Made by a program: the position numbers and the translations under genes
Shown: one piece after another, positions 2,734 to 51,873 of the stretch
How positions within the stretch are numbered: position 1 is the first letter of the stretch
How the letters are laid out: each line of letters starts with the position of its first letter
Source of the DNA: Patescibacteria group bacterium
GTDB lineage: Bacteria > Patescibacteriota > Patescibacteriia > UBA1558 > GWA2-36-10
Length of the DNA: 62,885 nucleotides
Reading direction: 5' to 3'
Assembly: GCA_028718865.1 (NCBI GenBank)
Contig: JAQUKX010000006.1
Span: 1 to 62,885, forward strand
The notes under the pieces: model-generated
Databases searched by the model: none
The model's input: only the letters and a program-made list of their open reading frames with translations
What the model was told of the DNA's origin: nothing

Positions 2734-3423
2734 TCATTTTTTTCTTACCAGACAATTCAAGTTGAATTTTGTTCTATAAACTCCCTTGGGAGACAAATCA
2801 AAACCGGATTTTTTTAAAATACTCTTGAGTTCGCCAGCCGTAAAAGCATGATAATAGCGCCAATTGCCTTTTTTTACGTGATTGGAATCTAATTTATCGG
2901 AAGTAAGCTGATAAGGAATAAAAACATCATTAAATTCTTTTTTGTTTTTAATATTTTTAAAAAAATACTTCAGATATTTTTTCTGCCAAAGGTTCCAATT
3001 GGTCATAAATAAATATCCACCCGGTTTAAGCCAGCTGTTTATTTTTTTGAGTAGCTCTAGACGATTTTTGCGGTCATAGATATGATGAAAAGAAGCAATC
3101 ATAAAAATAGCGTCAAAACTAGCTACTGGAAAATCCATTTTTTCTATATCCTCTATTGTAAATTTATAACCGGGCCAATCTTTTTTGGCTTGCTCTATCA
3201 GCCCTTGGCTGAAATCAATTCCTAAATAATCAAAAGAAAAATCCAACTCGGAAAGAGTCTTGAGCAAACGGCCATTGCCACAGCCCAAGTCCAAGAGCTT
3301 GAAGCCCGGCTTGATATATGGTATAAAAACTTCCAGTTCTGGCCAAGGAAAAACTCGAGTAACCGAAAAATCACTGGCAATATCATCGTAAGTTTTTTTT
3401 AATTCACCTTTTATGTCTATCAT
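2734..3423 (-). CDS. Class I SAM methyltransferase, Trm9/ALKBH8-like (putative tRNA cm5U34 methyltransferase)
   Basis: YDDIASDFSVTRVFPWP, DLGCGNGR, IASFHH, DVFIPY and RYYH parallel yeast Trm9 motifs as recalled; overlaps the elp3 start. Confidence 0.75.
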   Translation of the reverse strand: MIDIKGELKKTYDDIASDFSVTRVFPWPELEVFIPYIKPGFKLLDLGCGNGRLLKTLSELDFSFDYLGIDFSQGLIEQAKKDWPGYKFTIEDIEKMDFPVASFDAIFMIASFHHIYDRKNRLELLKKINSWLKPGGYLFMTNWNLWQKKYLKYFFKNIKNKKEFNDVFIPYQLTSDKLDSNHVKKGNWRYYHAFTAGELKSILKKSGFDLSPKGVYRTKFNLNCLVRKK

Positions 3424-5056
3424 TGATAAAAAAAAGAAAAAAATATTAGAAGAAATAGTCTTAAAACTAGATAAAGAAAATTATAATAGCGAGCTTGATT
3501 TTGTCAAAAAATTCCGAAAAGCATTTTCTCAATCAGGCTTAGAGCCGCATTCTAAAGCTACACTGATTTCTATTTACCGTCAACTGCTAAAAAGCAAAAA
3601 AATCAAGGCTAATAAAAAATTTGAAGAGCTTTTAAAAAAACGAGCCGTCCGCACTCTGTCTGGAGTTTCGGTTATTACGGTTTTGACCAAGCCTTTTCCT
3701 TGCCCCGGTAAATGCCTTTACTGTCCGGCTGAGCCAAAAATGCCCAAAAGCTATCTTTCCAATGAGCCGGCTGCCCAACGTGCCAAAAGGAATCTGTTTG
3801 ATCCAGTCAAACAAGTAAGTATGCGCATCCAAGCTCTTTTAAACAACGGCCATAGTGTAGATAAGTTGGAGGTTTTGGTTTTGGGTGGCACCTGGTCAGC
3901 TTATCCAGAAATTTACCAAAAAAATTTTATTCGTGACTTATTTTATGCCGCCAATACTTTTCGTCCAGCCAGCTCGGGACAAATTGCCAAAAGAATAAAG
4001 CGAAAAAAATATACTCTGGTCAAAGAACAGAAAATAAACGAAAAAACCAAATACAAAATTATTGGCTTAACTTTGGAAACTAGGCCAGATTTTATCAATG
4101 AATTAGAAATAAAAAAATTAAGGGAACTAGGTTGTACCCGGGTGCAAATCGGCGTTCAACATACTGATGACAAAATACTACAAAAAATCCAACGCGGTCA
4201 CGGACTAAAAGAAAGCATCAAGGCTACCCAGCTACTAAAAGAAGTTGGTTTTAAAGTTGACCATCATTATATGCCCGACTTGCCCGGATCAAGTCCGGCC
4301 AAAGATCTCAAAATGTTTGAATATGTTTATAAATCTCCCGATCTGCAACCCGACCAGATAAAAATATATCCTTGCATAGTCAATCCTTATGCCCCCCTTT
4401 ACAAATTATATAAATCTGGAAAATATAAACCCTACTCGCCTAAACAGCTCATTGATCTACTTTTGAAAATAAAACAAATTACGCCGCCTTGGATAAGAAT
4501 AAACCGACTGATTAGAGATATTCCCAAAGAAAGTATAGCGGCTGGTAATAAAATAACCAATCTCCGTCAATATCTCCAACAGGAGTTAAAAAAACAAGGT
4601 AAAAGTTGCCCTTGTTTGCGTTGTCGAGAAGTAAAAAATGAAAATCAAAATATAGCTAAAGCCATATTAACTAAAAGGGAATATCCAGCTTCCCAAGGCC
4701 AAGAAATATTTTTGAGCTTTGAAAGCTCTGATCAAAAAAAAGTCTACGCCTTTTTACGTTTACGGTTTAATAAAAATAAAAAAGAAAATATTTTTGCTGA
4801 ACTAAAAAATTCTGCCCTAGTTAGAGAACTGCATGTCTATGGCCAGATGAAACCAGTTTATAAAGAAGATAGTGATGAGGAAATTGGCCAAACACAGCAT
4901 TTGGGATTAGGTAAAAAACTAATGGCTGAGGCGGAAAAGATAGTAAAAAGTAAAGGCTATCAAAAAATAGCCGTCATATCTGGCATAGGAGTGAGAAATT
5001 ATTATCGCCAGCTAGGTTATAAACTAGAAGGAACTTATATGACCAAAAACCTATAA
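3413..5056 (+). CDS. elp3: Elp3 family radical SAM/GNAT tRNA U34 carboxymethyltransferase
   Basis: CPGKCLYC (CX3CX2C), ETRPD, VRELHVYG, QHLGLGKKLM, ISGIGVRNYY. Confidence 0.93.
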   Translation: MSIIDKKKKKILEEIVLKLDKENYNSELDFVKKFRKAFSQSGLEPHSKATLISIYRQLLKSKKIKANKKFEELLKKRAVRTLSGVSVITVLTKPFPCPGKCLYCPAEPKMPKSYLSNEPAAQRAKRNLFDPVKQVSMRIQALLNNGHSVDKLEVLVLGGTWSAYPEIYQKNFIRDLFYAANTFRPASSGQIAKRIKRKKYTLVKEQKINEKTKYKIIGLTLETRPDFINELEIKKLRELGCTRVQIGVQHTDDKILQKIQRGHGLKESIKATQLLKEVGFKVDHHYMPDLPGSSPAKDLKMFEYVYKSPDLQPDQIKIYPCIVNPYAPLYKLYKSGKYKPYSPKQLIDLLLKIKQITPPWIRINRLIRDIPKESIAAGNKITNLRQYLQQELKKQGKSCPCLRCREVKNENQNIAKAILTKREYPASQGQEIFLSFESSDQKKVYAFLRLRFNKNKKENIFAELKNSALVRELHVYGQMKPVYKEDSDEEIGQTQHLGLGKKLMAEAEKIVKSKGYQKIAVISGIGVRNYYRQLGYKLEGTYMTKNL

Positions 5057-5136: not shown

Positions 5137-5940
5137 TTGTGCCAAAAAACAGTCTCCATCAGTACAAATAGGTCTGATGGAAAATTAGGAGTGGAATTTG
5201 ATTCTCCCCAAACCCTAGCTGCTTTTCTAGATTTCATTCTAGCCATAGATAAGCCCGAGTTAAGACACTTTGTGCCTGTTCTAGAAAATGACGGCATCCT
5301 GCCCCAAGACGATCCTGGTTTTGAAGACTACCTGAAGAAAATGGGCATAACACCCTGGACCATACCTGGGGATATGAGGGCCTATTTTCTCGTCAAATTC
5401 CAAGAAGATGCTAACTGGTGGGAAAATTTACCTCTAGACAAACGAAACGATTTGATTGCCAAACACCCTAGCCTTAGAAGGAGGCCGGTCATGAACCTGG
5501 AGCGCTTGGAAAAGCTCAGCTTGGATGAACTAGATTTGTTTATCCAGAACCTACGCGTCCGCTTGACCAAGGAGGACTTCAGTCATCCCAAAAATCTCTT
5601 CATCAGAGATGTCTGCCTGCCGATACTGGTGGCTCTGAGACAAGGACAAGGGTTGACGGCCGAAAGCTGGGAGTTGCTGGCTCTGGCTGAAAGCCGAGGC
5701 TTCAGCCGCCATGAAATCGAAACCAGCATCAACGATGCCTACGACCACTTCGTCCGGCCGGTGAACAATCAACAAGCTGCCAAGTATCTGGGGATTTCCC
5801 CTCGACACTGCCGGCGAGTGATCGCTCGCATTGCCAAGTTCAACGGCGATGCCCGCAAGTCCATCACCAAGAAACACTGGCTGGTACCGGTCTCAGCGCT
5901 GGATGACTGGCTACTGCGCCACCGCTTGCGTCTGTCTTGA
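5137..5940 (+). CDS. Orphan protein with C-terminal excisionase-like helix-turn-helix
   Basis: AGGAGG 6 nt before a TTG start; C-terminal NNQQAAKYLGISPRHCRRVI...WLVPVSALDDWL; own terminator. Confidence 0.65.
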   Translation: MCQKTVSISTNRSDGKLGVEFDSPQTLAAFLDFILAIDKPELRHFVPVLENDGILPQDDPGFEDYLKKMGITPWTIPGDMRAYFLVKFQEDANWWENLPLDKRNDLIAKHPSLRRRPVMNLERLEKLSLDELDLFIQNLRVRLTKEDFSHPKNLFIRDVCLPILVALRQGQGLTAESWELLALAESRGFSRHEIETSINDAYDHFVRPVNNQQAAKYLGISPRHCRRVIARIAKFNGDARKSITKKHWLVPVSALDDWLLRHRLRLS

Positions 5941-5952
5941 CAGATCTAGCTT

Positions 5953-5989
5953 CGGCCGGCTCCTCTTAGGAGCCGGCCGCACTTTTTTT
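5953..5989 (+). terminator. Rho-independent terminator
   Basis: CGGCCGGCTCCT-CTT-AGGAGCCGGCCG perfect 12-bp stem followed by T7. Confidence 0.85.
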
Positions 5990-46197: not shown

Positions 46198-46282
46198 GCC
46201 GGCGTGGTGGAATGGTAGACACGCAGGACTTAAAATCCTGTACCCATTGGGTGTGTCGGTTCAAGTCCGACCGCCGGTACCA
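46198..46282 (+). tRNA. tRNA-Leu (TAA)
   Basis: GCCGGCG..CAGGA-CTTAAAA-TCCTG, long variable arm, GTCGGTTCAAGTCCGAC, ACCA. Confidence 0.95.
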
Positions 46283-50766: not shown

Positions 50767-51873
50767 TTATTGATTCTTCTCCCAAGCCCACTGATTAATC
50801 CTGCTTATCGCCTCGGCTGGGTTTATTCTGGATTTGGCCAGAGACACAGGACTGACTTTGGCAAAAGGCAAAGCATCTTGAATTTTAAAATCACCTATAG
50901 CTGTCCGGCGCAAATCAGCCAGAAGCGCCCCTGTGCCCAAAGCTTCTCCCAAATCATGAGCCAAAGAGCGGATATAGGTGCCAGCTGAGCAGCTTATTGA
51001 CAACTCCAATTTTGGATAAACAAAGCTTTTTATTTTCAAATCATATATTTCTATATCCGTGGCCGGCCGGACAATTTTTTTGCCGGCTCGAGCTAGCTGG
51101 TGCAGCTTTTGGCCTTGGATTTTTTTGGCCGAATAAGCTGGTACAATTTGTTTTTGCTGTCCCAAGAATTTTTTTAAAGTTTGCTCCAGGTCAGAGCAGC
51201 TGAATTTTTTGGCTTTTTCATTTATCTCTACCCTACCTTCCAAATCATAGGTGTTTGATCTCTGGCCAAAGACAATATCAGCCTGATAAGTTTTGGGCAA
51301 AATATGAAACCAATCCAAAAGGCGAGTAGCTCTTCCAGAGGCCAGAATCATCAGTCCGCTAGCCAAAGGATCGAGCGTACCAGCAAAGCCCACTTTTTTT
51401 ATTTGCAAAGCTTGACGCAAAATAGATACTGCTTTAAAAGAATGCTCGCCTTTAGGCTTATCCAGAAGATAAAGACTAGACTGAGAATCCTCCAGAATTG
51501 CCGCTAGCCGGCTGCTTTTGAAAAGCTGGGGCTGATAAGGTGGCAGGACTTCTGTTTGAAAACTGCCCCAACCGCTAAACATCTCCTGCAAAAGCTCTTG
51601 ATCATGACCTAGACACAAAATATCGGGACTAAAAATACCTATCAACTGTCGGGCGTCTTGGCTACTTCTGAGAAAAAGCTCCAAGCCAAAAGGCTGGAGA
51701 TTTTTTAGCCGGATTTTTTCATTTTGATAAGGCGTGTAGTTTTTGAATTTTTTTATCAGCTTGTCTGACTCTACTACAGCCGTCACCTTGCCCCGAGTTT
51801 TGGCTTGTTTTATCAAAAAAATATGGCCCGGATGGATAATGTCAAATTTACCAAAAATCAAAACTTTTTTCAT
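50767..51873 (-). CDS. truB: Fusion: N-terminal cytidylyltransferase-like (RibL FAD synthetase-like) domain plus tRNA pseudouridine(55) synthase TruB
   Basis: FGKFDIIHPGH, PDILCLGHDQ, FKSS; then LLDKPKG, AGTLDPLASG, QIVPAYSAKK, CSAGTYIRSLAHDLG. Confidence 0.85.
   Translation of the reverse strand: MKKVLIFGKFDIIHPGHIFLIKQAKTRGKVTAVVESDKLIKKFKNYTPYQNEKIRLKNLQPFGLELFLRSSQDARQLIGIFSPDILCLGHDQELLQEMFSGWGSFQTEVLPPYQPQLFKSSRLAAILEDSQSSLYLLDKPKGEHSFKAVSILRQALQIKKVGFAGTLDPLASGLMILASGRATRLLDWFHILPKTYQADIVFGQRSNTYDLEGRVEINEKAKKFSCSDLEQTLKKFLGQQKQIVPAYSAKKIQGQKLHQLARAGKKIVRPATDIEIYDLKIKSFVYPKLELSISCSAGTYIRSLAHDLGEALGTGALLADLRRTAIGDFKIQDALPFAKVSPVSLAKSRINPAEAISRINQWAWEKNQ

Follow-up and report, generated by a model that had tools for sequence, protein, structure and literature searches.

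A divergent elp3–methyltransferase gene pair on a Patescibacteria contig

The stretch of DNA analysed here (the window) is an entire 62,885-bp contig from the AT-rich genome of a Patescibacteria group bacterium, with a GC content of 33-45%. Near one end it carries two adjacent genes whose products resemble the two enzymes of a wobble-uridine tRNA modification pathway of archaea and eukaryotes. The first gene, elp3 (3413..5056, plus strand), encodes a stand-alone Elp3 of 547 amino acids with radical S-adenosylmethionine (radical-SAM) and GNAT/KAT domains. The second, a trm9-like gene (2734..3423, minus strand), encodes a class I SAM methyltransferase of 229 amino acids that we predict to be a carboxyl methyltransferase of 5-carboxymethyluridine at tRNA position 34 (cm5U34).

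The two open reading frames (ORFs) diverge from a head-to-head junction at 3413..3423, where, as read from the ORF coordinates and the sequence, their ATG start codons overlap by 11 bp. No other in-frame start lies close by for either gene, and the alignments with homologues begin at residues 1-13 of both proteins, and we therefore take the overlap to be real. The first-pass annotation, made from the sequence alone, had placed both ORFs and the overlap of their starts exactly. Its description of the genes as fused has to be corrected: they are two separate, divergent genes on opposite strands that share only their start regions.

In eukaryotes, it is established that Elp3 forms cm5U, which Trm9-Trm112 or ALKBH8 then converts to 5-methoxycarbonylmethyluridine (mcm5U) (PMC6144793, PMC7663514, PMC7694415). 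Support for the same route in archaea comes from the activity of M. infernus Elp3, from the active HvoTrm9-Trm112 complex and from the presence of mcm5U in Haloferax (PMC6144793, PMC7663514, PMC7694415). In Sulfolobus, as S. solfataricus illustrates, elp3 and trm9 belong to one gene cluster (PMC6144793). The pair described here differs from the archaeal one in its strictly head-to-head arrangement with overlapping starts and in its bacterial host.

The Elp3 protein is intact and carries a basic N-terminal extension

The Elp3 protein scores 545.3 bits against the NCBIfam model TIGR01211 (cutoff 350), with residues 57-547 aligned to positions 38-522 of the 522-position model. Pfam recognizes the Radical_SAM and Radical_SAM_C domains and, weakly, Acetyltransf_1, which at 20.0 bits falls just below its cutoff of 20.7; the alignment with solved Elp3 structures takes in the GNAT/KAT domain and runs to their ends. 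The best matches in the PDB are the Elp3 proteins of M. infernus (6iaz, E = 1.6e-109) and Dehalococcoides mccartyi (5l7j, E = 5e-107), followed by eukaryotic Elp3 (about 1e-98). The window protein is thus about equally near to the archaeal structure and to that of D. mccartyi, the one characterised bacterial Elp3, with which it shares the domain architecture and a stand-alone existence.

The motifs that bind the cofactors are all in place. The cysteine triad that holds the radical-SAM [4Fe-4S] cluster is found in CPGKCLYC (residues 97-104), and the acetyl-CoA-binding Q/RxxGxG motif reads QHLGLG at residue 495. A further cysteine cluster, CPCLRC at residue 399, corresponds to one described as a zinc site that the Elp3 proteins of bacteria and archaea have in common (PMC6367351). 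With these motifs and a TIGR01211 score well above cutoff, the earlier reading of an intact Elp3 stands.

The alignment to D. mccartyi Elp3 starts only at residue 76 of the window protein. The preceding segment is a lysine-rich extension of about 75 amino acids (23 lysines and arginines fall within residues 1-85) that the D. mccartyi enzyme lacks. In archaeal Elp3, an extended N-terminus is required for tRNA binding (PMC6367351), and the short-tailed D. mccartyi enzyme has reduced tRNA affinity and is weakly active in vitro (PMC6367351, PMC7663514). By analogy, the extension found here probably binds tRNA, and in this feature the window Elp3 appears to resemble the archaeal enzyme. Like the Elp3 of M. 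infernus and M. jannaschii, which act without Elp1, Elp2 and Elp4-6 and likewise combine an extended basic N-terminus with a cysteine-rich zinc motif, it would not depend on Elongator partners; such solitary action is known for Elp3 of both archaea and bacteria.

The methyltransferase belongs with Trm9

In Pfam and NCBIfam, the methyltransferase matches generic class I families only: Methyltransf_11 and Methyltransf_25 at about 1.9e-19, with weak hits to BioC, UbiG and UbiE. Neither database returned a Trm9-specific model for it. This result says little, because fungal proteins annotated as Trm9 receive the same generic Pfam domains and no others in their precomputed annotation. Five independent lines of evidence, from sequence, profiles and active-site residues, assign the protein to Trm9. 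When phmmer was run against all PDB chains, the sole match from end to end was Trm9 of Yarrowia lipolytica (5cm2_Z, residues 22-214, E = 1e-13); the two matches ranked above it, both plant phosphoethanolamine methyltransferases, cover the Rossmann core only.

Profiles sharpen this assignment in both directions. A profile built from 25 methyltransferase family members of the Candidate Phyla Radiation (CPR) places Yarrowia Trm9 at the top of the PDB, over its full length (92.7 bits, E = 2.2e-25; next chain, 78 bits). Conversely, a profile built from 14 fungal Trm9 proteins gives the window methyltransferase 98.3 bits and the 25 CPR family members 63-115 bits, and no non-Trm9 chain in the whole PDB exceeds 41.8 bits. 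When the two alignments are matched to each other with hhalign, they pair over 204 columns, from the N-terminal helix to the last β-hairpin, with a probability of 99.94% and an E-value of 8.5e-37.

The features shared with the fungal Trm9-Trm112 enzymes (S. cerevisiae; Y. lipolytica, 5cm2) and with the ALKBH8 methyltransferase domain include the class I fold, an N-terminal Y..IA..FS.TR...WP motif, the HH, W...Q, D(V/F)x(V/I)P(W/Y) and RYYH motifs, and a C-terminal asparagine. The Trm9-like motifs that the first-pass annotation had quoted are real; they align with fungal Trm9 in both HMMER and hhalign. Motif I of the methyltransferase, DLGCGNG, occupies residues 45-51. The AlphaFold2 (AF2) model is confident overall (pLDDT 88), and its one poorly predicted loop, residues 177-185, coincides with the site at which fungal Trm9 carries an insertion of variable length, between the PW and RYYH motifs. 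The CPR protein differs in being bacterial and a compact single domain of 229 amino acids, without the AlkB and RRM domains of ALKBH8. Two family members (P0027 and P0107) have already been named ‘alkB family protein 8’ in automatic annotation by JGI.

The scores in both directions, the full-length hhalign alignment and the residue conservation described below support a Trm9-type enzyme rather than a generic Methyltransf_11 protein, as had been proposed. We also considered a CmoM-type role (making mcmo5U) and a CmoA/CmoB-type role. The CmoA and CmoB models reach only 20-26 bits, far under their cutoffs, and the termini are specific to Trm9; we rejected both roles.

Residues required for Trm9 catalysis are largely invariant

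Mutagenesis of yeast Trm9 has identified R29, D72, H116, W145, W168, R241, Y243 and N271 as needed for function, with contributions from H115 and Y18 (PMC4678810). The equivalents in the window methyltransferase are, in the same order, R23, D70, H114, W143, Y171, R189, Y191 and N221, with H113 and Y12 for the last two. Across the 25 family members, Y12, R23, H114, W143, R189 and N221 are invariant. Position 70, the acidic end of β2 that corresponds to yeast D72, is aspartate in 21 of the 25 and glutamate in the other four. At position 171 (yeast W168) the family has tryptophan, tyrosine or phenylalanine, most often tryptophan (21/25). The N-terminal F-S-x-T-R-x-x-x-W-P motif and the C-terminal R-Y-Y-H motif with its asparagine, both specific to Trm9, are kept in the family.

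The counterpart of the Trm112-binding surface is polar

Residues V59, F78, V102, A110, P112 and F116 of Yarrowia Trm9 form a hydrophobic patch that is buried under Trm112 in the complex, and this covered patch explains why fungal Trm9 is insoluble without its partner (PMC4678810). In the hhalign register, the corresponding positions of the window methyltransferase are K42, D65, T89, D97, P99 and F103. The same change runs through the family. The V59 column is hydrophobic in 100% of the fungal Trm9 proteins versus 4% of the CPR family, the F78 column in 93% versus 0%, and the A110 column in 100% versus 4%; at V102 the figures are 93% versus 40%. In place of the hydrophobic residues, the CPR proteins carry lysine or aspartate at V59, asparagine, aspartate or serine at F78, and aspartate, asparagine or serine at A110.

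The hydrophobic core of the interface through which Trm112, an obligate partner, activates Trm9 is therefore lacking in the window methyltransferase, and this polar and charged surface sets the CPR family apart from fungal Trm9. A polar or charged patch is what would be expected of an enzyme that acts alone. We thus find it plausible that the CPR methyltransferase works without Trm112, and we read the loss of the interface as an argument for a Trm112-independent variant, not against Trm9-type catalysis. The archaeal Trm9 tested so far works as a Trm112 complex (PMC6144793); the CPR family would probably differ from it in this respect. A pattern scan of the 62.9-kb window for small zinc-knuckle ORFs found no Trm112-like gene, as had been noted before, although on one contig this is a weak test and Haloferax Trm112 itself lacks the cysteines.

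The pair is conserved across Patescibacteria

We examined 85 related loci, with flanks of 4 kb, for Elp3 by tblastn with the window protein. Elp3 was present in 76, always upstream of the methyltransferase gene and on the opposite strand, and the linkage persists down to about 37% identity of the methyltransferase and 45% identity of Elp3. Nine loci had no Elp3, and in two of these the methyltransferase sits at a contig edge. One further homologue outside this set (P0100) also lacks a neighbouring Elp3 gene. The synteny of the pair, which the first-pass annotation had left to be checked in other genomes, is thus a property of Patescibacteria and not of this genome alone.

The family is large. 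Among candidates that share sequence words with the methyltransferase, 688 match at E < 1e-5, and when a single genome of each GTDB species was scanned, 505 loci came to light, nearly all under the title of a Patescibacteria lineage: Parcubacteria, Nomura-, Komeili-, Uhr-, Falkow-, Nealson- and Portnoybacteria, Gracilibacteria, Peregrini- and Peribacteria, and Saccharibacteria are among them. Some titles name other groups, and we do not rely on them. One locus titled Actinomycetota (Ca. Humimicrobiia; L084) was considered as a non-CPR example and set aside: it has a GC content of 27-33% and a CPR-like elp3/trm9 locus. Neither are the ‘uncultured Gammaproteobacteria’ titles of many TPA assemblies (e.g. 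L008, L009 and L016) credible, their loci being 55-60% identical to the Patescibacteria pair.

The genes on either side of the pair vary. In locus L005 they are restriction-modification and type IV secretion genes, and in L001 they are glyA and folD together with a bactofilin gene. The conserved unit is the elp3–methyltransferase pair, whose junction is kept where the flanking genes differ.

The junction itself is compact. It could be measured in 69 loci, in 62 of which the two starts lie within 200 bp of each other. Overlapping starts occur in 34 loci; in 22 of these both start codons are read from a single palindromic CATG and overlap by 2 bp, and in the other 12 they overlap by 8-41 bp. Among the junctions without overlap, the gap measures 0-50 bp in 15 loci and 51-200 bp in a further 13. 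With the starts so close, the promoters and ribosome-binding regions of each gene must fall inside the coding sequence of its partner. In the window, we noticed a candidate promoter of this kind for the methyltransferase gene, a TTGACA-16-TATAAT element on the minus strand (3480..3507, read from 3507 to 3480) that matches the consensus at 12 of 12 positions, lies 57 nt upstream of the methyltransferase ATG and falls within Elp3 codons 23-32. A match of this quality occurred in one of 1580 control windows of 120 nt. A perfect σ70 promoter is not a conserved feature of the pair: matches of at least 10/12 were present in 9% of the other loci versus 4% of controls, and none of those loci reached 11/12. 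The element would thus seem to be a local feature of this genome, with a putative promoter function.

Surroundings of the pair in the window

Beyond the pair, the window holds housekeeping genes (gyrA, valS, polA, ftsH, nusA, tig and glmS) and two tRNA genes found by ARAGORN, as the first-pass annotation had reported: tRNA-Glu(UUC) at 35941..36015 on the minus strand and tRNA-Leu(UAA) at 46198..46282 on the plus strand. Both have a U34, which makes them candidate substrates by analogy with the known targets of eukaryotic Elp3 and Trm9. NCBIfam models, run on 30 larger ORFs of the window, identified further tRNA-modification genes, namely queA, tsaD and truB. The TruB model TIGR00431 covers only residues 134-337 of its 368-amino-acid ORF (50767-51873, minus strand), which has either a start further downstream or an unmatched N-terminal extension of about 130 amino acids.

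On the far side of elp3, in the segment 6109-8334, the gene for serine hydroxymethyltransferase, glyA, follows on the same strand. This neighbour recurs after elp3 in 32 of the 85 loci, and folD comes next in 19, a number held down by the 4-kb length of the flanks; the order elp3-(x)-glyA-folD persists to about 40% methyltransferase identity. A link of glyA and folD to one-carbon and SAM supply may be functional, or it may reflect conserved gene order alone.

Between elp3 and glyA lies an ORF (5137-5979) of 267 amino acids, called as 249 amino acids, that stands out by its GC content of 0.53-0.58 over 5500-5950, compared with about 0.33 in its neighbours. Its product has a weak C-terminal HTH_17 match, only three homologues among 5.8 billion proteins, and no match in PHROG or among plasmids. 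In seven other loci (L001, L002, L010, L012, L013, L020 and L086), relatives of this ORF likewise separate elp3 from glyA, so we regard it as a lineage-specific resident gene rather than a recent arrival. Behind its stop codon lies a GC-rich inverted repeat with perfectly matching 12-nt arms (5953-5964 and 5968-5979).

The minus-strand ORF downstream of the methyltransferase gene (754-2667, 637 amino acids) encodes a predicted secreted protein that matches TIG weakly and has a linker rich in Pro, Thr and Glu; by tblastn, none of the 85 related loci holds a relative of it. The bactofilin/DUF8173-like gene beside it (1-636) is kept in 15 of them.

A probable two-step wobble-uridine modification module

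We consider it likely that the pair forms a two-step module of the archaeal and eukaryotic type for the modification of wobble uridines in tRNA. In the first step, the stand-alone Elp3 would use a 5'-deoxyadenosyl radical generated by its radical-SAM domain, together with acetyl-CoA, to install a carboxymethyl group on C5 of U34, yielding cm5U. In the second step, the Trm9-type methyltransferase would transfer a methyl group from SAM to the carboxylate of cm5U, producing the methyl ester mcm5U34. The enzyme would act through its single domain and probably needs no Trm112 partner. Likely substrates are tRNAs with U34 that read NNA and NNG codons, such as tRNA-Glu(UUC). That this chemistry takes place in this organism, on these tRNAs and independently of Trm112, we infer from the protein sequences and their relatives.

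Several observations weigh against this interpretation and are given here together with its rivals. The first rival is that the methyltransferase does act together with Elp3 but makes a product other than mcm5U, by methylating another atom in the side chain or base of U34 or a derivative other than cm5U. It could draw on the literature, in which no bacterium has yielded biochemical or mass-spectrometric evidence of cm5U or mcm5U and the bacterial end product has never been measured (PMC7663514, PMC7694415); even in yeast the order of the steps around Trm9 is debated, to judge from the title of PMC3110198. It could also draw on the active site, where W168 of yeast Trm9 is conservatively replaced by tyrosine (Y171) in the window protein and where position 191, the equivalent of Y243, is tyrosine in 17 of 25 family members but isoleucine or valine in one subclade. 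The residues that position the carboxylate and the uracil (the equivalents of R29, H116, R241, N271 and Y18), however, are all invariant, within an alignment to Trm9 that extends over the full length. We therefore regard a different product as unlikely.

The second rival holds that the protein is a generic methyltransferase acting on a small molecule, a protein or rRNA, and that its position beside Elp3 merely reflects gene order in small CPR genomes. The database matches are indeed generic, and the methyltransferase reaches no equivalog cutoff in Pfam or NCBIfam. A Foldseek search with the AF2 model ranks an uncharacterised methyltransferase of M. mazei (3sm3) just above Trm9, which comes second (E = 1.6e-13, TM-score 0.82 on the target) with many class I methyltransferases close behind. 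In addition, glyA and folD are conserved beside the pair although nothing evident ties them to it in function. A caveat on the two-step module itself is that the Trm9 assignment stems from profile scores, with fungal proteins as the Trm9 sequences compared, and not from a phylogeny. Class I methyltransferases are not told apart by fold alone, and we give the structural ranking little weight. By contrast, the Trm9 profile discriminates sharply between the family and all other solved methyltransferases (63-115 bits versus at most 42), the N- and C-terminal motifs specific to Trm9 are kept, and the head-to-head junction survives in loci with differing flanks, such as L005 and L001. A generic methyltransferase that lies next to elp3 by chance of gene order seems to us quite improbable.

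Lastly, the weak in vitro activity of D. mccartyi Elp3 and the failure to detect xcm5U in bacteria (PMC7663514) might suggest that CPR Elp3 is a protein acetyltransferase or another kind of radical-SAM enzyme, and that the pair acts on something other than tRNA, but with every cofactor motif and the basic N-terminus present and a Trm9-like protein as partner, we find this hardly credible.

Returning to the two-step module, both proteins are ordinary members of known families and in all likelihood catalyse the known reactions. The novelty lies in the domain of the host, in how widely the pair is distributed, in its strict head-to-head architecture and in the probable loss of dependence on Trm112. 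The finding would extend a known pathway to a new domain and is not a new mechanism.

The established bacterial route to modified U34 starts from different enzymes. MnmE and MnmG, with MnmC, also act on C5 of U34, probably in the same set of tRNAs, and can be seen as functional analogues of the pair. Yet they are unrelated to it in sequence and in chemistry: MnmE and MnmG use GTP, FAD and methylene-tetrahydrofolate with glycine or ammonium, in place of the radical-SAM and acetyl-CoA reaction of Elp3 followed by O-methylation. No MnmE, MnmG or MnmA was found by NCBIfam among 30 of the larger window ORFs, which represent a single contig and not the whole genome. A bolder version of our interpretation would be that, in much of the CPR, a self-sufficient Elp3 and a Trm112-independent Trm9, encoded as a compact head-to-head module, make mcm5(s2)U34 and have displaced the nearly universal bacterial MnmE/MnmG system. 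We put this forward tentatively and lean towards doubting it; if it were true, bacteria would gain their first mcm5U pathway, and a core system for the tuning of translation would have been exchanged across an entire lineage.

Implications for bacterial tRNA modification

Published surveys leave little room for such a pathway in bacteria. Homologues of Trm112-dependent methyltransferases have been reported as undetectable in bacteria (PMC5372719), bacterial Elp3 has been described from Dehalococcoides alone and evidence of xcm5U as lacking (PMC7663514), and the occurrence of cm5U and mcm5U has been restricted to Archaea and Eukarya (PMC7694415). A 2026 paper states that ‘numerous bacteria’ have Elp3. 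Full-text searching of the literature returned no paper that describes a bacterial Trm9 or a CPR Elp3-Trm9 pair. Reviews present the D. mccartyi enzyme as a rarity; the CPR pair, by contrast, has a wide distribution, with 505 relatives in one scan.

Conserved as it is in hundreds of CPR genomes, the Elp3-Trm9 pair leads us to predict wobble uridines of the mcm5U type in bacteria and challenges the statements made in the reviews (PMC5372719, PMC7663514, PMC7694415). It also offers biochemistry a Trm9 that appears to be naturally independent of Trm112 and a compact bacterial Elp3 that is predicted to be active; such enzymes would be welcome, given the difficulty of producing eukaryotic Elongator and Trm9. 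For the organisms themselves, the pair bears on the accuracy of decoding in genome-reduced symbionts. Its distribution bears further on the origin of the Elongator pathway, that is, on whether the pathway was inherited vertically or passed between archaea and the CPR by transfer.

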